Of a stretch of DNA of 64,000 bases, positions 2,266 through 49,184 are shown piece by piece. Location of the stretch: assembly GCA_021814695.1 (NCBI GenBank), contig JAKAHY010000002.1, positions 8,920 to 72,919 of the forward strand. The letters run 5' to 3'. Position 1 is the first letter of the stretch; each line of letters opens with the position of its first letter. Source of the stretch: a bacterium. Its GTDB lineage: Bacteria; Patescibacteriota; Minisyncoccia; UBA6257; JAGOQP01. Below the pieces are notes generated by a model. The model was not told the origin of the DNA. It worked only from the letters and a program-made list of their open reading frames with translations, and searched no databases. Position numbers and translations under genes: made by a program.

Positions 2266-2290
2266 GTGGAGATGGGAGAGTTGGCTCCGA
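2266..2290 (-). repeat. Duplicate of the tmRNA 3' end (T-loop end, T-stem 3' strand, acceptor 3' strand)
   Basis: The minus strand reads TCGGAGCCAACTCTCCCATCTCCAC. The genuine tmRNA end at 2672-2697 reads GAGTTCAACTCTCGCCATCTCCAC. About 19 nt are shared, with one 1-nt indel. Confidence 0.8.
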
Positions 2291-2530
2291 CTAAACTAAA
2301 TGCTTGTTTCTAAAAGCTATTCCCGAACCACTTTTCAGATATTTTTCAAAGTTGATCGCCTGTTCCTTGTTATGAAAAGTGCAGTGCCAAGCAATAATAA
2401 ATGGCGCTCTACTTGAGCTATATTTGGAACCATAACTATTATGTTCCAATAGTCTTTTCTTAATATCAATTGTGATGCCCGTATAGAAACTCCCATCTTT
2501 TAAACTGCGAAGAATATAGACAAAATACAT
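2291..2530 (-). CDS. GIY-YIG (URI-domain) nuclease family protein, minimal 79-aa form
   Basis: It has MYFVYILRS...GSFYTGITIDIKKRLLEHN (GIY..YIG..R..H-N) and a later E (NKEQA). A TATAAT box (2541-2546) lies 10 nt before the ATG, giving a very short leader. Confidence 0.85.
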   Translation of the reverse strand: MYFVYILRSLKDGSFYTGITIDIKKRLLEHNSYGSKYSSSRAPFIIAWHCTFHNKEQAINFEKYLKSGSGIAFRNKHLV

Positions 2531-2671
2531 ATTATCTATAATTATATGGCCCTCCTTCGCATAAAGCTACGGAGGACTCACTACTCGCACCATAAAACTC
2601 CCCAGATGGGGAGTTTTATTGCAATGCTTCTTGTGCAAGGAGTGCTTGCACTACGAAGCCTTGGCGAAGTA
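2531..2671 (-). other. Hairpin-rich leader ('type B' motif) between the tmRNA and the GIY-YIG ORF
   Basis: It contains CTTCGCCAAGGCTTCGTAGTGCAAGC, a terminator-like AAAACTCCCC-atct-GGGGAGTTTT, and CCTCCGTAGCTTTATGCGAAGGAGG. The first and last motifs recur after tRNA-Gly(UCC), at 47838-47943 and 48066-48174. Confidence 0.6.
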
Positions 2672-10668: not shown

Positions 10669-13600
10669 ATGTTGAGAAATCTTAAACACTTTAATCCGCC
10701 GGAAATTGAGGAAAAAGTTTTACAGCTTTGGAAAGAAAAAGGGATATTTCAAAAAACACTCAAAGTTCCAAAAGGAAAAAAGGCCCTGCCTACCGGCAGG
10801 CAGGCAAAAATATTTCGGTTTTGGGAAGGTCCACCGACAGCCAATGGCCGTCCCGGAATTCATCATATTTTAGCCCGTTCTTTTAAGGACGTTGTTTTGC
10901 GTTTTAAAACGATGCAAGGGTATACGGTTCCCCGTAAGGGTGGTTGGGATACTCATGGATTGCCCGTTGAAATCCAGGTTGAAAAGCAGCTCGGATTTAA
11001 AACAAAAAAAGATATAGAAGATTACGGAATAGCCGCATTCAACCAAAAATGTAAAGAATCAGTCTGGCTTTATCAAAGCGAATGGGAAAAATTGACCGAA
11101 CGCATGGGTTTTTGGCTGGATTTGAAAAATCCTTATGTCACATACCACAAAGATTACATAGAGTCGCTTTGGTGGATCATCAAACAAGTTTGGGATAAAG
11201 GGTTGATGTATCAAGGGCATAAAGTGGTTCCTTGGTGTACTCGCTGCGGGACAGCTCTTTCTTCCCATGAATTGGCTCAAGGATACAAAGAGCTTACCGA
11301 TACTTCTGTTTACATAAAATTTAAACTTCTTCCAAAACAAAAAATCGGTTCTTTTATAACCGATGATAAAACATACATCTTATCCTGGACGACGACTCCT
11401 TGGACTTTGCCCGGAAACGTCGCTTTGGCAGTCGGAAATAAAATCAAATATATTGCGGCAAAAATCGGAGGAGAGACTTTTATTATTGCGGAAGATCTTG
11501 CCGGATCGGTTTTGGGATCGGAAAATCATAAAGTTATCAATGAATTTAAAGGCGAGTCGATTTCAGGGAAAGAATACGCCCCACTTTTTGAAATTGCGGC
11601 ATTAAAAAAACCGGAATCGTACAAGGTATATCCGGCTAAATTTGTGACAACCACCGATGGAACGGGGGTGGTGCACACGGCCGTAATGTACGGAGAGGAC
11701 GATTATAACCTGGGAAAAGAAGTCGGACTTCCTCAGCATCATACGGTTACCGAACAAGGAACTTTCACAAAAGACGTTAAAGGATTTGAAGGGATGTACG
11801 TCAAAGCCAAGGAGACCGAGGATAAGATACTAGATTATCTAAAGAAAAATAATTTCCTTTTGCAAACACAGGCTTATACCCATGAATATCCTCATTGCTG
11901 GAGATGTGGAACTCCGCTTTTGTATTACGCGCGCAGTTCATGGTTTGTAGCGATGTCGAAACTGAAAGATAATCTGATCGAAAGCAACCAGGGAACCAAC
12001 TGGGTTCCGGCACATATCAAAGAGGGCAGATATGGAGAATGGCTCTCCGAAATTAAAGATTGGAATTTTTCACGGGAAAGATATTGGGGCACCCCACTGC
12101 CGATCTGGACGTGCGAGAATTGTGGAAACCATAAAGCTGTTGGAAGTTATAAAGAGCTTTCGGAACATCTTCCTTCTAGTACCAACAGATATATTCTTGT
12201 CCGTCATGGAGAAGCGGGGCAAAATGTTTCCAATATAATCAACTGCGACCCCAAAGATAAGGATAAATACCCGTTAACAACCAATGGAATAATCCAGGCG
12301 AAGAGAACTTCCCTGAGCCTCAAGAAAAAAATAAAAAAAATAGACGCGATTATCTCGTCGGATTTTATTCGGACAAAGGAAACCGCAAAAATTATCGGCG
12401 ATGAATTTGGAATAAAGAAAATAATCACCGATCCGCTTTTGAGGGAAGTTAACATGGGAGATTTTAACGGGGACAATGTTTCTCGTTACCACGAGTACTT
12501 TTCTTCGCTTGAAGAAAAATTTATGAAACGGACCCCTAACGGAGAAAACCTCAGAGATCTGGCCGCAAGAAGCTACGATTTTATACAAAAATGTGAAAAA
12601 AAATACAGCGGGAAAACTATTGTTGTGGTAGGGCATGAATATCCGCTGTGGATGGCGGAGACCGTTCTTTCTGGATGGAGTCAGGAAGAATCGGTGTCGG
12701 AAAAAGAAAAAAGAGGTCCCGATTTTATAGAAGTCGGAGGATTTGATTCCGTTACTTTTGTTCCGGCATCAAGAGATGAACAGGGAATCTGTGATTATCA
12801 TAAGCCATATGTGGATTCAATCAGCATCCCTTGCGAAAAATGCGGAAAAAAGATGAATCGAGTTAAAGAAGTTGCCGACGTATGGTTTGATTCGGGGTCA
12901 ATGCCATTTGCCCAAGATCATTATCCTTTTGAGAAGGGTGATAAAGTCGGGAAAGCGCCCCAATCGTTTCCGGCCGATTATATCTGTGAGGCAGTCGATC
13001 AGACCCGCGGGTGGTTTTACACTCTTATGGCCGTCTCTACATTATTGGATTATGAAACGCCGTATAAAAACGTCGTTTGCCTAGGGCATATAAACGACAA
13101 GCATGGACAGAAAATGTCCAAATCAAAAGGGAACATTGTTGATCCATGGATGATAATAGATAAATATGGCATTGATGCCGTTAGGTGGTATTTTTACACC
13201 GTTAATGCTCCGGGGGAGCCGAAGAATTTTGACGAGAATGAGGTTGCTAAAGTACTGAGAAAATTCAGCATGACTCTTTATAATTCGTTCGCGTTTTTGG
13301 CGCTTTATGGAAAACAGAAGGTAAGTATCCAAAAGAAACCTTCATCGCCGAATATTTTGGACAGGTGGATTTTGGCAAGGCTAAATCAAACAACTGTCGG
13401 AGTTTCGGACAAAATGGACGCATATGATTTCTTGGCTACCGGACAAATAATAGAATCGTTTATTGACGATCTTTCCAGATGGTACATTCGCCGATCGAGA
13501 AAGAGATTCCAAAAAATTTCGGATAAATCGGATTGGGGTACGGCGACCGGTGTTTTGGCGTATGTTTTGGCCGAATTTTCAAAAGTGATCGCTCCCTTTA

Positions 13601-14223
13601 CTCCATTTTTCGCCGAAGCTCTTTACAGATCCATAGCCGAATTTTGTTCGTTTAGCGCAAAAGAATCCGTTCATCTCGAATCATGGCCGGAGGGCAGGGT
13701 TTTTAATGACGATGCGGTTATGTCGGAAGCCATGAAACAGATAAGAGACTACGCCAGTGCTGTTTTGGCAAAAAGAGCCGAAGTTGGAATCAAAGTGCGG
13801 CAGCCTTTGAGCTTGTTGAAAATAAGAAGCATTAAGTCTAAAGAAAAAGACTCTAAACAATTATTAGAAGTGTTAAGGGATGAAGTTAACGTCAAAGAAG
13901 TTGTGATTGATCCAAAAATAGAAAATGAATTTGAGTTGGATATCAACATCACTCCGGAACTTAAAGCCGAAGGAATTTTGAGGGAAATAGCCCGGACAAT
14001 TCAGGAATTGAGACAAAGTTCGGCATGTGTTCCCAAGGATAAAATAGAAGTTCGCATTTCCGGACCTGCCGACATTGAAGCGGTGGTCAAAAACGGACAA
14101 GCCACGCTTTGCCAATACGTTAACGCCAAAAATATTCTTTTCGGTAAGAGCGGTAAATTTGATTCCGAAATTGAAACCAAAATTGATTCGTCAAAAATTT
14201 GGATAGGTTTAAGAAAAATATAA
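10669..14223 (+). CDS. ileS: Isoleucine--tRNA ligase (type-2-like) with an inserted histidine-phosphatase-family domain
   Basis: It has EGPPTANGRPGIHH, KMSKSKGN, the editing-domain region, and WTCENCG ... CEKCGKKMNRV..DVWFDSGSMP. Between the two Cys pairs (about nt 12175-12790) lie RYILVRHGEAGQN, SSDFIRTKETA, REVNMGDFNG and VVGHEYPL, which is the RHG...H signature of histidine phosphatases. Confidence 0.93.
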   Translation: MLRNLKHFNPPEIEEKVLQLWKEKGIFQKTLKVPKGKKALPTGRQAKIFRFWEGPPTANGRPGIHHILARSFKDVVLRFKTMQGYTVPRKGGWDTHGLPVEIQVEKQLGFKTKKDIEDYGIAAFNQKCKESVWLYQSEWEKLTERMGFWLDLKNPYVTYHKDYIESLWWIIKQVWDKGLMYQGHKVVPWCTRCGTALSSHELAQGYKELTDTSVYIKFKLLPKQKIGSFITDDKTYILSWTTTPWTLPGNVALAVGNKIKYIAAKIGGETFIIAEDLAGSVLGSENHKVINEFKGESISGKEYAPLFEIAALKKPESYKVYPAKFVTTTDGTGVVHTAVMYGEDDYNLGKEVGLPQHHTVTEQGTFTKDVKGFEGMYVKAKETEDKILDYLKKNNFLLQTQAYTHEYPHCWRCGTPLLYYARSSWFVAMSKLKDNLIESNQGTNWVPAHIKEGRYGEWLSEIKDWNFSRERYWGTPLPIWTCENCGNHKAVGSYKELSEHLPSSTNRYILVRHGEAGQNVSNIINCDPKDKDKYPLTTNGIIQAKRTSLSLKKKIKKIDAIISSDFIRTKETAKIIGDEFGIKKIITDPLLREVNMGDFNGDNVSRYHEYFSSLEEKFMKRTPNGENLRDLAARSYDFIQKCEKKYSGKTIVVVGHEYPLWMAETVLSGWSQEESVSEKEKRGPDFIEVGGFDSVTFVPASRDEQGICDYHKPYVDSISIPCEKCGKKMNRVKEVADVWFDSGSMPFAQDHYPFEKGDKVGKAPQSFPADYICEAVDQTRGWFYTLMAVSTLLDYETPYKNVVCLGHINDKHGQKMSKSKGNIVDPWMIIDKYGIDAVRWYFYTVNAPGEPKNFDENEVAKVLRKFSMTLYNSFAFLALYGKQKVSIQKKPSSPNILDRWILARLNQTTVGVSDKMDAYDFLATGQIIESFIDDLSRWYIRRSRKRFQKISDKSDWGTATGVLAYVLAEFSKVIAPFTPFFAEALYRSIAEFCSFSAKESVHLESWPEGRVFNDDAVMSEAMKQIRDYASAVLAKRAEVGIKVRQPLSLLKIRSIKSKEKDSKQLLEVLRDEVNVKEVVIDPKIENEFELDINITPELKAEGILREIARTIQELRQSSACVPKDKIEVRISGPADIEAVVKNGQATLCQYVNAKNILFGKSGKFDSEIETKIDSSKIWIGLRKI

Positions 14224-30157: not shown

Positions 30158-30227
30158 TTTTTATAAAAAAGTTTATTAACATGATGGACTTTTTTTAAAA
30201 ATCACGATAACATAAACTCACAAATTT

Positions 30228-30299
30228 GCGGGTATCGTATAGCGGCTATTATACTTCCTTGCCAAGGAAGAGATACGGGTCCGACTCCCGTTACCCGCT
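30228..30299 (+). tRNA. tRNA-Gly (anticodon GCC)
   Basis: The acceptor stem is GCGGGTA/TACCCGC. The anticodon arm is CTTCC-TTGCCAA-GGAAG. The T arm is ACGGG-TCCGACT-CCCGT. CCA is not encoded. The T loop has C at position 55. Confidence 0.9.
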
Positions 30300-30337
30300 C
30301 AAAAACAAAAATTACCCAAACGGGTAATTTTTGTTTT

Positions 30338-30466
30338 GGGTGTTGACGGGGTAGGATGCGGGGTGGTCGAGGGGCTGCAAGCCCCTCGTGTTGGAAATTA
30401 TTCAAAACCGAGGGTTTTGAAGGAGCGAATATAATGAGCGACGTCCGATTTCCCGTTACCCGCTCA
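30338..30466 (+). repeat. tRNA-3'-end-capped structured repeat ('type A' unit), Gly(GCC) copy
   Basis: It reads GGGGTGGT, P1 CGAGGGGCT-gca-AGCCCCTCG, TGTTGGAAA, P3 TTCAAAACC-gag-GGTTTTGAA, then ...GAGCGACGTCCGATTTCCCGTTACCCGCTCA. The last ~20 nt repeat the tRNA-Gly 3' end. Confidence 0.8.
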
Positions 30467-30502
30467 AAAACAAAAAGCACCACAAGGGTGTTTTTTGTTT
30501 TC

Positions 30503-30653
30503 TGTCCGCCCGGAAGGGAGTCTCACGTCGCTCCGACATTGCGTCGGAGCTCCCAAGACACCCTCGGTTTCTTGACGCTCCTCCGGAGCTTTTTCCTACA
30601 CGGGAGATTAAGCATCTCCCGACCCCTCTCTATTCAATTCCTTGTTGACGAAC
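30503..30653 (-). repeat. Type A unit, Lys copy 2
   Basis: On the minus strand it reads GGAATTGAATAGAGAGGGGT, P1 CGGGAGAT-gctta-ATCTCCCG, TGTAGGAAAAAG, CTCC-gga-GGAG, CAAGAAACC-gag-GGTGTCTTG, GCTCCGAC-gcaat-GTCGGAGC, then GACGTGAGACTCCCTTCCGGGCGGACA. Confidence 0.8.
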
Positions 30654-30689
30654 AAAACAAAAAATATTCACAAAGGATATTTCTTATTT

Positions 30690-30827
30690 TGTCCGCCCGG
30701 AAGGGAATCTCACGTCGCTCCGACCTTGCGTCGGAGCTCCTTAAAACCATTCGGTTTTAATATTTCCTCCACGGAAAACCTTCGGTTTCCCGACCCCATC
30801 CGATTTGATTCCTTTACTGACGAATAT
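30690..30827 (-). repeat. Type A unit, Lys copy 1
   Basis: On the minus strand it reads GGAATCAAATCGGATGGGGT, P1 CGGGAAACC-gaa-GGTTTTCCG, TGGAGGAAA, AAAACC-gaat-GGTTTT, GCTCCGAC-gcaag-GTCGGAGC, then GACGTGAGATTCCCTTCCGGGCGGACA. Confidence 0.8.
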
Positions 30828-30865
30828 AAAACAAAAAGCACCACAAGGGTGTTTTTTGTTTTCTG

Positions 30866-30938
30866 TCCGCCCGGAAGGGATCGAACCTTCGACCGTCTCC
30901 TTAAGAGGGAGCTGCTCTACCAGCTGAGCTACGGGCGG
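30866..30938 (-). tRNA. tRNA-Lys (anticodon CTT)
   Basis: The acceptor stem is CCGCCCG/CGGGCGG (C1:G72). The D arm is GCTC-AGCTGGTA-GAGC. The anticodon loop is CTCTTAA. The T arm is GAAGG-TTCGATC-CCTTC. CCA is not encoded. Confidence 0.88.
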
Positions 30939-30978
30939 TACGAAACCATTCTGCCATCAAAAAAATAATTTTGCAATC

Positions 30979-47837: not shown

Positions 47838-47960
47838 AAAATATCCCGACAAGTGAGGGGATTTTGTATAGTCCTTCTTCGCATAAAGCTTCGAAGGACA
47901 CTTTTCGTCTGGCTTGCACTTCGTAGCTCGCCAGGGCGAAGAAGTGAGCGGGTAAGGGGA
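47838..47960 (-). repeat. 123-nt direct repeat, copy 1 (tRNA-Gly 3' end + type B motif)
   Basis: By eye it is identical to 48066-48188, at an offset of 228 nt. On the minus strand it reads CCCCTTACCCGCTCA, then CTTCTTCGCCCTGGCGAGCTACGAAGTGCAAGC...GTCCTTCGAAGCTTTATGCGAAGAAGGAC...ATCCCCTCACTTGTCGGGAT. Confidence 0.85.
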
Positions 47961-48062
47961 AGTCTTACGCTCACCCCCGACCCCCGCTTAAGAAACCTTC
48001 GGGTTTCTTACGTCCCTATTTTCCAACACGGGGGTTCGCATTCGACTCCCAAACTCACCCAC
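47945..48062 (-). repeat. Type A unit, Gly(UCC) copy (variant arrangement)
   Basis: On the minus strand it reads GGGAGTCG-aatg-CGAACCCCCG, TGTTGGAAAATA, TAAGAAACC-cgaa-GGTTTCTTA, then GGGGGTCGGGGGTGAGCGTAAGACTTCCCCTTACCCGCTCA. Confidence 0.7.
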
Positions 48063-48065
48063 AAA

Positions 48066-48188
48066 AAAATATCCCGACAAGTGAGGGGATTTTGTATAGT
48101 CCTTCTTCGCATAAAGCTTCGAAGGACACTTTTCGTCTGGCTTGCACTTCGTAGCTCGCCAGGGCGAAGAAGTGAGCGGGTAAGGGGA
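48066..48188 (-). repeat. 123-nt direct repeat, copy 2 (overlaps the genuine tRNA-Gly(UCC) 3' end)
   Basis: See copy 1. Its upstream end is the real T-stem and acceptor 3' strand of the tRNA at 48175-48245. Confidence 0.85.
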
Positions 48189-48245
48189 GTCGGACCCCTC
48201 TCATCAGCTTGGAAAGCTGAGGTAATACCGATATACGATACCCGC
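48175..48245 (-). tRNA. tRNA-Gly (anticodon TCC)
   Basis: The acceptor stem is GCGGGTA/TACCCGC. The anticodon arm is TCAGC-TTTCCAA-GCTGA. The T arm is AGGGG-TCCGACT-CCCCT, again with C at position 55. CCA is not encoded. Confidence 0.85.
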
Positions 48246-48941: not shown

Positions 48942-49014
48942 GGGCCGTTAGCTTAGTTGGTAGAGCGCCTCGTTTGCAACGAGGAGGTCACCGGTTCGAA
49001 TCCGGTACGGTCCA
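48942..49014 (+). tRNA. tRNA-Ala (anticodon TGC)
   Basis: The acceptor stem is GGGCCGT/ACGGTCC with G3:U70. The anticodon arm is CCTCG-TTTGCAA-CGAGG. The T arm is ACCGG-TTCGAAT-CCGGT. Confidence 0.92.
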
Positions 49015-49052
49015 CATAACAAAAAAATTGCCTAGCGCAATTTTTTTGTTAT

Positions 49053-49184
49053 GATGAATCAGGGTCGGTTTGAATATTTAGGGGTCGGGGTATTTGTAAA
49101 TACCCCGAGTAAGAAAATTTGAGAAACCGTGGGTTTCTCACGAACGAATGAAATGAGTGAGGTGAGATTCCGGTACGGTCCACA
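49053..49184 (+). repeat. Type A unit, Ala(UGC) copy
   Basis: It reads GGTTTGAATATTTAGGGGT, P1 CGGGGTATTT-gta-AAATACCCCG, AGTAAGAAA, TGAGAAACC-gtg-GGTTTCTCA, then ...GAGGTGAGATTCCGGTACGGTCCACA. The last 19 nt repeat the tRNA-Ala 3' end. It ends 4 nt before ATG 49189. Confidence 0.8.

Follow-up and report, generated by a model that had tools for sequence, protein, structure and literature searches.

Why should seven of nine tRNA-type genes in one piece of a bacterial genome carry a second copy of their own 3′ end, and what is the folded segment that stands directly in front of that copy at five of them? The question is raised by a 64,000-nucleotide stretch of contig JAKAHY010000002.1 (assembly GCA_021814695.1, positions 8,920 to 72,919), the whole of which we call the window. 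An earlier inspection of its letters and translated reading frames (the sequence-only reading) had described six copies of a structured repeat and had preferred a functional RNA or a structure-dependent mobile element to random scars. We refer to the repeats as scaffold elements and to their conserved core as the scaffold; copy G1 follows tRNA-Gly(GCC), K2 and K1 follow tRNA-Lys(CUU), and P, G2 and A follow tRNA-Pro(CGG), tRNA-Gly(UCC) and tRNA-Ala(UGC), respectively (Table 1). The strong covariation reported below supports that preference, and we favor, with about as much doubt as conviction, the view that the six units are small (about 150-250 nt), protein-less, non-autonomous, site-specific mobile or insertion elements of an undescribed kind that is spread throughout the Patescibacteria (candidate phyla radiation, CPR).

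Duplicated tRNA ends and six scaffold copies

ARAGORN and Rfam agree with the earlier placement of nine tRNA-type genes in the window, one transfer-messenger RNA (tmRNA) gene and eight tRNA genes, none of which encodes its CCA. Comparison gene by gene also reproduces the count of seven with a duplicated 3′ end. The duplicate is identical at 19 of 19 nt for tRNA-Lys, 21 of 21 for tRNA-Gly(UCC), 24 of 25 for tRNA-Gly(GCC) and 21 of 24 for tRNA-Ala(UGC); for tRNA-Pro there is an 18-nt exact run, with 27 of 34 positions matching across the full T-arm. The tmRNA has an 18/19-nt copy at +389 without a scaffold, and at tRNA-Ala(CGC) (window 37356-37415) a degenerate copy running from T-arm to 3′ end (23/34) lies 22 nt downstream, again with no scaffold between. 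No 3′-end duplicates were found at the tRNA-Arg and tRNA-Ser genes of the window. Scaffold copies are present at five of the eight tRNA genes, and each of the six is directly followed by an exact copy of 16-19 nt of the tRNA 3′ end. The duplicate often extends past the tRNA end into the downstream flank: the segments 30467-30519 and 30828-30880 at tRNA-Lys, which had looked identical, are so over all 53 nt in a repeat search, and 47838-47960 and 48066-48188 at tRNA-Gly(UCC) are 100% identical over 123 nt.

The six intervals of the sequence-only reading were aligned first, and RNAalifold on a small MAFFT alignment gave only one helix, P1, and a doubtful GGU/ACC pairing; the structure was therefore set by hand and then tested by pair counts. 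A covariance model built from nine clean copies with this hand-set structure was run unfiltered on both strands of the 64 kb. It finds exactly six matches at E<=1e-3, whose cores correspond to the six intervals picked out by eye. All lie on the tRNA strand downstream of the tRNA and start 18-94 nt beyond it; the next-best match (E=0.05) is within an open reading frame (ORF). The order of parts does not vary: gene body, gene-proximal repeat (which completes the gene), a short spacer or terminator hairpin, lead, linker, scaffold and distal repeat, the last of these forming the tail of the element. The AT-rich terminator-type hairpins reported earlier can indeed be read directly from the letters; a simple terminator scan calls none of them.

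Fold of the scaffold

The scaffold is about 90-130 nt long and comprises P1, a joining segment J1/2 (GUGUAGGAAA), a second helix P2 of the form ..AAACC-loop-GGUUU.., a segment J2/3 (AGGAG), a variable helix P3 and a closing ...CGAC. In an alignment of 115 homologues, 97.4% of the P1 and P2 cells hold standard pairs (P1 99.7%, P2 94.9%), compared with 83.7% in column shuffles, and 15 of the 19 pairs change on both sides, with 270 compensatory cells versus 65 in the shuffles. When the partners are slid by 1-3 columns as a control, pairing falls to 32-71%. The 115-sequence alignment was fitted to the model, which favors the structure, but the effect is so large, and the types of pair so varied, that there is little doubt that P1 and P2 are real; the compensatory changes first noticed in six copies are thus borne out for both helices.

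The G·U pairs identify the folded strand as the tRNA-sense strand. In all six window units this strand folds 4.7-16 kcal/mol better than the antisense strand (z-scores -1.3 to -4.8), and duplexes between lead and tail are likewise stabler on it (Wilcoxon p=2e-7).

A mutual-information scan brought out a further regularity, in that the purine linker just 5′ of GGGG-UC mirrors the 5′ strand of P1, e.g., AAGGAGGG-G-UC-GGGAGGAA. The mirror identity is 0.53 versus 0.37 for permuted pairs (z=10). A mirror repeat cannot form a Watson-Crick helix, but it matches what a purine·purine-pyrimidine triple helix requires, which suggests that the linker may form such a triple helix on P1.

Conserved gene ends as targets

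In 72 of 103 copies the scaffold is immediately followed by an exact direct repeat of 10 nt or more, whose second copy lies 50-120 nt upstream of the scaffold. The repeat length ranges from 10 to 123 nt across the copies, the longest in other genomes being 96 nt. The tRNA-like tail is the displaced original end of the gene, that is, a duplication of the target, and no conserved part of an RNA.

Among 108 copies, 51 have a same-strand tRNA gene within 400 nt upstream (at 18-94 nt), and one has a tRNA on the opposite strand. The tail matches the tRNA 3′ end over at least 12 nt in 33 of these 51, which cover 14 amino-acid types, with identity setting in 13-24 nt from the tRNA end, within the T-loop or shortly before it. 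About half of the copies are found at the ends of protein genes instead. These include the 3′ ends of the genes for EF-G (locus L011, 63-nt repeat; loci in other genomes are given as L numbers) and PGK (L034, 66-nt repeat ending exactly at the stop codon), the 5′ end plus promoter region of an EF-G-like gene on the opposite strand (L025, 96-nt repeat), and MurC, S9 and LemA genes among others. The non-tRNA targets have no common motif, and the T-loop motif is common among the tRNA targets.

The lead (10-20 nt) and the opening 10-20 nt of the repeat are complementary. Duplexes between the two have a median of -11.9 kcal/mol versus -9.3 for permuted partners (p=3e-7), and the complementarity remains significant for the 35 copies remote from tRNA genes. 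Of 44 copies, 33 have a lead whose pairing with the gene-proximal copy and the context upstream of it is better than that with the tail, versus four in which the reverse holds (p=4e-6; median energies -20.7 and -15.5 kcal/mol, respectively). At L030 it is the exact reverse complement of the entire T-arm. Folding joins the gene end, hairpin and lead into one long hairpin in 33 of 35 cases; at tRNA-Gly(GCC) of the window, the hairpin that follows the gene is nested within such a structure. Two motifs of the sequence-only reading lose their independence here. Its 5′ "GGAATTGAAT" lead is the reverse complement of T-loop plus T-stem, and its "GAGCGACGTGAGA" segment is the 3′ closing strand of the scaffold (...CGAC) joined to a mutated copy of the T-loop (GTGAGAT). 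Many tails at different tRNAs open in this manner, with CGAC-GTGAGAT or CGAC-GTGAAAT, and identity to the local tRNA begins only after it.

Two other origins of the lead were considered. Mimicry of a tRNA acceptor/T-arm minihelix, in which the lead resembles the 5′ acceptor strand, was dropped, as copies at non-tRNA sites show equal complementarity between lead and target. The quasi-palindrome of gene end, hairpin and lead might also be a by-product of snap-back synthesis at the terminator hairpin; this was rejected as a general origin because the leads of long-repeat copies (L025, L011, L013, L018) complement only the junction-proximal 10-15 nt, and because the Lys leads of the window, L133 and L131 have common derived differences.

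Some arrangements are not explained by this anatomy. A solo lead plus linker GGGGAATTGAATCGGAAG (35728-35745) behind copy P runs into the promoter region of an AI-2E transporter gene. The hairpin types of the tRNA-Lys array alternate H(a)-H(b)-H(a), and L019 has a rearranged second copy, carrying part of the tRNA-Gln end, hairpin and lead, at a non-tRNA site.

Empty sites, exchange between copies and the origin of the replacement end

Orthologous loci were reached through homologues of the GerMN-like protein encoded beside tRNA-Lys, by protein search and contig look-ups, and the percentages that follow are the identity of that protein to the window copy. In L130 (78%) and L129 (67%) tRNA-Lys is followed directly by tRNA-Gly(GCC) and the scaffold is absent; the tRNA-Pro(CGG) site of L129 is empty as well. 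Comparison of relatives for empty tRNA sites, which the sequence-only reading had recommended, thus finds them at Lys and Gly in both and at Pro in one. L133 (59%) has a single copy after tRNA-Lys with a 49-nt perfect repeat, and L131 (56%) has a homologous lead followed by an internally deleted scaffold. A metagenome scan with the GerMN-like protein found no close relatives. Contigs from other assemblies of the same organism (L124-L126) are short and end about 70 nt past the gene beside tRNA-Lys; tandem scaffold copies appear to break short-read assemblies near this point.

Modules have been exchanged between copies. K1 and K2 have the same lead, P3 and tail and different P1-P2 segments; the L133 copy is near-identical to K2 in P1-P2 (with one compensatory change, in P2) and different in P3; and L038 has two scaffolds that are 95% identical and have different leads, each matched to its own tRNA. 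Perfect long repeats adjoin old scaffolds, which implies gene conversion.

Displaced protein-gene ends that are not identical to the functional copy retain their reading frame and stop codon; over the final six codons at L011 the two have diverged by five synonymous changes and not one nonsynonymous change. From this we conclude that the replacement end evolved in some other lineage, as the end of a working gene, before it was imported, and this synonymous-only divergence of functional and displaced ends weakens a model of pure target-site duplication.

Occurrence in the Patescibacteria

An exact-pattern scan (GGGGTCGGG-N8-24-CCGTGKAGGAAA) of one genome per prokaryotic species returned at least 120 stretches, almost all labelled Patescibacteria and including many Parcubacteria lineages, Saccharibacteria and Berkelbacteria. 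The covariance model locates 115 copies in the window together with the initial 99 loci and another 25 in additional loci; altogether the scaffold is known in >140 copies from >110 Patescibacteria assemblies. The possibility, allowed for by the sequence-only reading, that it might recur nowhere else clearly does not hold. The same pattern has no match in 2.9 million viral contigs, and BLAST of one whole unit found none in phage and plasmid collections.

Rfam run on the whole window at the gathering threshold reports only the tRNAs and tmRNA, and at E<=10 on 30200-30960 it gives only chance-level matches far under threshold. The scaffold element belongs to none of the tRNA-like elements, small ribozymes, HEARO/omega-RNAs or group I/II introns of Rfam 15, in line with the earlier failure to recognize it as any described RNA family. 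No description of it was found in a full-text literature search; the group I introns in anticodon loops of Patescibacteria tRNA genes (PMC13011429) and TIGR-Tas arrays (PMC12045711) are unlike it.

At L015, L016, L026, L032, L044, L056, L081 and L096 the scaffolds form a sub-family placed immediately before the start codons of unrelated genes (S14, S18, Hsp20-like, MgtC-like and others). All of these except L026 and L081 have a common 21-nt 3′ extension (TAACTYTNNNRTACCACT-ATG; six of eight), and a 5′ CCCNNATCGGAGA is common to several, including L026, L044 and L081.

Search for a linked enzyme

Pfam searches of 30 window ORFs identified housekeeping genes and one small GIY-YIG ORF, and no recombinase, TnpB, IscB, Cas or IS110-type gene; a reverse transcriptase was not found in the 64 kb either. 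Clustering of the ORFs within 2.5 kb of about 120 loci yielded only the target genes (EF-G, RF2, MurC and others) and a few scattered GIY-YIG proteins of ~85 aa. The earlier remark that no integrase or transposase is nearby holds. For an autonomous form of the element, far repeats were sought up to 8 kb from the copies; none were present.

Two neighboring arrangements deserve mention in their own right. Between the tmRNA 3′ end and its 18/19-nt copy (window 2266-2671, minus strand) lies an ORF for a 79-aa GIY-YIG nuclease (2291-2530), a layout in which the gene end is replaced and duplicated as in scaffold elements, with a nuclease gene in place of the scaffold. A second repeat of ~105 nt (...CTTCGCCCTGGCGAGCTACGAAGTGCAAGCC...GTCCTTCGAAGCTTTATGCGAAGAAGGAC) occurs after tRNA-Gly genes, at 47838-47960 and 48066-48188, and also at 2540-2670 and after tRNA-Gly(GCC) in L131 and L133. 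Its similarity is to the leader of the GIY-YIG ORF downstream of the tmRNA, and it may be what is left of cassettes of this type. L131 also encodes a diversity-generating retroelement (positions 1-2295; reverse transcriptase, bAvd and variable protein) at a distance of about 3 kb from the corresponding tRNA cluster, with no counterpart in the window.

A possible mechanism

The earlier interpretation stands as regards the RNA or mobile nature of the units, and it is extended here in that they are CPR-wide, are not confined to tRNA genes, end in a displaced gene end and begin with a lead complementary to the target. On the sense strand of the entered gene each has three parts: a replacement for the final 10-120 nt of that gene (for a tRNA, T-loop to 3′ end, usually plus terminator hairpin), the 10-20-nt lead complementary to the start of that segment, and the purine linker with the 90-130-nt scaffold, whose 3′ end abuts the displaced original gene end. 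Scaffold and lead would form a cis-acting module, most likely as RNA. In a free or pre-integration form (a circle, or RNA read through a tandem copy) the lead would pair with the element's own target copy and close the scaffold; this helix of lead and gene end would be the "closing stem" now seen with the tail, and would put the scaffold 3′ end at the point of exchange. Exchange with the end of the chromosomal gene could then be guided by this same identity of sequence. It might be carried out by a protein that acts in trans under the guidance of the module, by the scaffold itself as catalyst, by target-primed reverse transcription, or by host recombination after DNA uptake, beside which we note the pilus genes in the window. 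The target would be regenerated on the gene-proximal side, making tandem copies such as K2 and K1 possible. We suggest tentatively, and rather doubtfully, that the scaffold is a nucleic acid of a new kind, catalytic or directing recombination: a module of ~90 nt, made of RNA or single-stranded DNA and built on a triple-helix-type core, whose variable, target-copying closing helix would set its own 3′ end at the exchange point and so allow protein-less homing into the ends of tRNA and other conserved genes across the CPR, with a replacement end supplied.

Several observations weigh against insertion elements of this description. We infer every mechanistic step, and neither the 30 window ORFs screened nor the neighborhoods of ~120 loci yielded a linked gene for an integrase, a transposase or a reverse transcriptase. 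The Lys-copy leads are only about 60% complementary to their target. The solo leads after distal repeats (window 35728-35745, L035 and L064; degenerate in L110) are unaccounted for, as are two different scaffolds that stand back to back without a lead at L109 (5809-5984, ...GGCGAC followed by GGGGTCGG...); these last lie inside the 3′ end of a membrane-protein ORF, which now reads into the first of them. Perfect long repeats beside old scaffolds require frequent gene conversion. A Lys-type copy with a degenerate lead is also present in L133, whose GerMN-like protein is only 59% identical, and old vertical inheritance under selection would fit this as well as homing does. The six window copies are mutually diverged (27-61% identity in the model alignment) and give no sign of a recent burst here. 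Finally, neither a target repeat nor lead pairing was detected in the start-codon sub-family.

Alternative explanations

The most serious rival, to which we give an appreciable if small chance, is a cis-acting RNA that is useful to the host, such as a self-cleaving ribozyme, an insulator of 3′-end processing or termination, or a mimic of a tRNA end, with the duplications as by-products of ancient copying. Selection for such a function would suit the very strong conservation of the scaffold across CPR classes, its tertiary-type mirror covariation, the tRNA-Lys copy that distant relatives have in common with a compensatory change in P2, and the terminator-type hairpin after each unit (for copy A see Table 1). 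The start-codon sub-family, with its conserved 21-nt extension, unrelated genes and lack of repeats, points the same way. A self-cleaving ribozyme in particular would have only indirect hints in the conserved junction, the tertiary-type covariation and the multi-copy intergenic placement; by analogy, known small ribozymes are also multi-copy and intergenic, with a role that is unclear. A useful host RNA would, however, hardly be expected to be missing from the sites of the closest relatives and decayed in another, to vary in copy number per site (K1/K2, L109), or to sit within the coding or structural ends of unrelated genes and leave displaced ends behind, and no single gene class is tied to the scaffold.

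A second possibility, which we rate as quite unlikely, is that the units are guide RNAs like omega-RNA or bridge RNA for a nuclease or recombinase encoded elsewhere, the lead or tail specifying the target. A conserved scaffold with a segment of 10-20 nt on either side, in exact agreement with the target at the junction, would be expected of a guide; the T-loop complement in many leads would serve as a common handle on all tRNA genes, and the two 95%-identical scaffolds of L038 with their different target-matched leads would also suit guides. The 30 window ORFs screened nonetheless include no TnpB, IscB, Cas or IS110-type gene and none recurs within 2.5 kb of the ~120 loci, the guide-RNA families that Rfam contains do not match, and known RNA-guided transposons do not make large duplications. 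Moreover, the intact gene-proximal copy would be a perfect target in the same genome, so a nuclease would target its own host.

A third possibility, which we think improbable, is retroposition: a read-through transcript of scaffold, old-target copy and terminator, resembling a short interspersed element (SINE), would anneal by its 3′ tail to the matching sequence of a new genome and be copied in by target-primed reverse transcription. The precise 3′ junction, the variable 5′ extent and repeat length (10-123 nt), and the chimeric tails in which CGAC-GTGAGAT is joined to a new tRNA end at many different tRNAs are what such copying should leave, as is the L019 copy with a partial tRNA-Gln end, hairpin and lead at a non-tRNA site; a reverse transcriptase of the diversity-generating type is encoded in a relative. 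Against this, neither the window nor the surroundings of the copies yielded a reverse transcriptase gene, Patescibacteria reportedly lack group II introns (PMC13011429), the lead is left unaccounted for, and replacement ends with synonymous differences only are better explained by a gene end that the element carries than by a newly duplicated target site.

The direct repeat from T-loop to tRNA 3′ end and the foreign origin of the replacement end also recall the attL/attR attachment-site scars of integrase-borne islands or prophages that inserted at the tRNA T-loop and were later deleted. The T-loop is reportedly the classical sublocation of tRNA-integrating elements. Such scars are a very improbable explanation in view of the same covarying 90-nt scaffold beside the junction at >140 sites without integrase or cargo, the lack of matches in the viral, phage and plasmid collections searched, and the one-strand G·U covariation, unexpected for a double-stranded protein-binding arm. 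That the likeness is fortuitous, or that tRNA flanks were simply duplicated in tandem on the spot, is suggested by the tandem layout at tRNA-Lys and the identical 53-nt and 123-nt repeats, but is already refuted by E-values down to 1e-27, recurrence in >110 other genomes and the covariation, and can practically be dismissed.

Comparison with known systems

Seen as insertion elements, the units most resemble tRNA-targeting integrative elements (tyrosine-integrase islands and prophages), which insert in the 3′ part of tRNA and tmRNA genes, supply a foreign replacement end, leave the old end as a direct repeat, keep the gene intact and also use protein-gene ends. The repeat of the tRNA 3′ part is present here, as 16-19-nt exact repeats starting in the T-loop. 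An integrase gene inside the element is not, only 50-120 nt lying between repeat and scaffold, and the assignment fails on this lack of integrase or cargo. Scaffold elements further differ in being only 150-250 nt long, in their highly variable repeat length, in having a single-strand-folded scaffold and a target-complementary lead at the junction, and in their absence from the viral and plasmid collections searched.

With the omega-RNAs of TnpB/IscB and the bridge RNAs of IS110 they have in common a structured scaffold and short variable target-matching segments at the end of a mobile element. An omega-RNA, however, lies at the end of an insertion sequence that encodes TnpB or IscB, neither of which was found in the 30 window ORFs screened or recurred near the loci. 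It also has a single free guide of about 16-20 nt at one end, which matches DNA beside a fixed motif; scaffold elements have target-matching segments on both sides of the scaffold that are complementary to each other (the lead, and the tail or gene end). Bridge RNAs carry two internal loops; here no DEDD-type recombinase is linked and the consensus is a multi-helix junction without split-guide loops. The lack of a linked effector and of an Rfam match, and the large target duplications, separate the scaffold element from both.

SINEs, R2-type target-primed retroelements and retrozymes are likewise short, protein-less and structured, with target-derived 3′ ends and tandem copies, and scaffold elements have the variable-length duplication, precise 3′ junction and variable 5′ end of SINEs and other retroelements without long terminal repeats. 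No source of reverse transcriptase was found for them in the 64 kb, they lack an A-rich tail and any known ribozyme motif, and their lead and replacement end have no counterpart there. Retrons offer an analogous pair of inverted repeats, as in lead and tail, but the adjacent reverse transcriptase gene is absent. Group I and II introns, of which the tRNA genes of Patescibacteria hold many (PMC13011429), are also structured RNAs in conserved genes that recognize flanking "exon" by pairing and preserve gene function; scaffold elements preserve it by duplication, not splicing, are about 90 nt rather than at least 200 nt, match no intron model (RF00028 included) and lie at the T-loop or gene ends rather than in the anticodon loop, and the upstream tRNA is already complete. 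Miniature inverted-repeat transposable elements (MITEs), REP/REPIN, Correia and RUP repeats are similarly multi-copy, short, intergenic, foldable and protein-less. Scaffold elements, unlike them, have no shared terminal inverted repeats or fixed-length target-site duplication (lead and tail differ by target and the repeat is 10-123 nt), are strictly placed at gene ends, and are conserved in the center and variable at the ends, the reverse of a MITE. We therefore rate the scaffold element as outside the known kinds, with a mechanism that we infer.

Features of the window

The window has a G+C content of 41% and its genes are mainly of a housekeeping nature (IleRS, enolase, RNase Y, CCA-adding enzyme, ZnuA and pilus genes). 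The ORF for isoleucyl-tRNA synthetase (10669-14223, 1184 aa) has a His_Phos_1 (histidine-phosphatase) domain inserted at residues 509-673.

Table 1. Scaffold elements, their parts and the tRNA genes they enter, by position in the window
Feature	Positions	Strand	Basis
tRNA-Gly(GCC), entered by G1	30228..30300	+	ARAGORN, Rfam
AT-rich terminator-type hairpin after tRNA-Gly(GCC), between functional tRNA end and lead	30302..30337	+	read from sequence
G1 lead and purine linker, complementary (including G·U pairs) to tRNA-Gly 3′ part	30338..30362	+	folds
G1 scaffold core: P1, J1/2 GUGUUGGAAA, P2, P3, ...CGAC	30355..30442	+	covariance model, 92 bits, E=2e-27
G1 tail, displaced copy of tRNA-Gly(GCC) from T-loop to 3′ end	30443..30466	+	24/25 identity
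Hairpin common to the ends of G1 (+) and K1 (-)	30467..30502		repeat search; part of 30467-30519 = 30828-30880
K1 tail, tRNA-Lys 3′-end copy preceded by GTGAGAC	30503..30526	-	identity, repeats
K1 scaffold core (distal Lys copy); J1/2 and P2 separated by an additional hairpin	30527..30634	-	covariance model, 43 bits, E=2e-11
K1 lead and linker; GTTCGTCAACAAGGAATTGAATAGAGA reaches to 30661	30635..30653	-	sequence, folds
Second hairpin type H(b), after K2 tail	30654..30689	-	homologous to hairpin after tRNA-Lys in relative L133
K2 tail, GTGAGAT plus 17-nt exact tRNA-Lys 3′-end copy	30690..30713	-	direct-repeat comparison
K2 scaffold core (proximal Lys copy)	30714..30805	-	covariance model, 60 bits; P1-P2 near-identical to L133 copy
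K2 lead and linker	30806..30827	-	sequence, folds
Terminator-type hairpin H(a), directly after tRNA-Lys	30828..30864	-	sequence, repeat search
tRNA-Lys(CUU), entered by K2 and K1	30865..30938	-	ARAGORN, Rfam
tRNA-Pro(CGG), entered by P	35430..35501	+	ARAGORN, Rfam
Hairpin, P lead and linker (...CTCCGGAAATTGAATCAGAA)	35502..35554	+	sequence, folds
P scaffold core	35555..35655	+	covariance model, 42 bits
P tail, GACGTGAGAT plus tRNA-Pro 3′-end copy (18-nt exact run)	35656..35680	+	repeat search
Diverged hairpin copy, then solo lead and linker GGGGAATTGAATCGGAAG (35728-35745) without scaffold	35681..35745	+	read from sequence
G2 displaced repeat, tRNA-Gly(UCC) 3′ end plus ~105-nt downstream segment	47838..47960	-	repeat search
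G2 scaffold core, divergent	47970..48064	-	covariance model, 19 bits, E=1e-3; fold z-score -4.8
tRNA-Gly(UCC) (48174-48245) and gene-proximal 123-nt repeat copy (48066-48188)	48066..48245	-	ARAGORN, repeat search
tRNA-Ala(UGC), entered by A	48942..49015	+	ARAGORN, Rfam
Hairpin and A lead (...GGGTCGGTTTGAAT...)	49016..49072	+	sequence, folds
A scaffold core	49073..49161	+	covariance model, 84 bits
A tail, GTGAGAT plus 16-nt tRNA-Ala 3′-end copy; hairpin after tail absent	49162..49184	+	identity

Significance

The scaffold element is a multi-copy and highly conserved component of a large share of CPR bacteria that is missing from Rfam and the literature searched. Its copies break assemblies at tRNA loci and give rise to false tRNA fragments and false ORFs in CPR genomes. 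Scaffold-plus-target-helix systems have repeatedly been turned into genome-engineering tools, and the element may have value of this sort. Should it prove mobile, it would amount to a cassette without any protein of its own, made of a spare gene end and a target-matched structured module, and it could represent a third harmless route into essential genes, beside splicing introns and integrase-borne islands.

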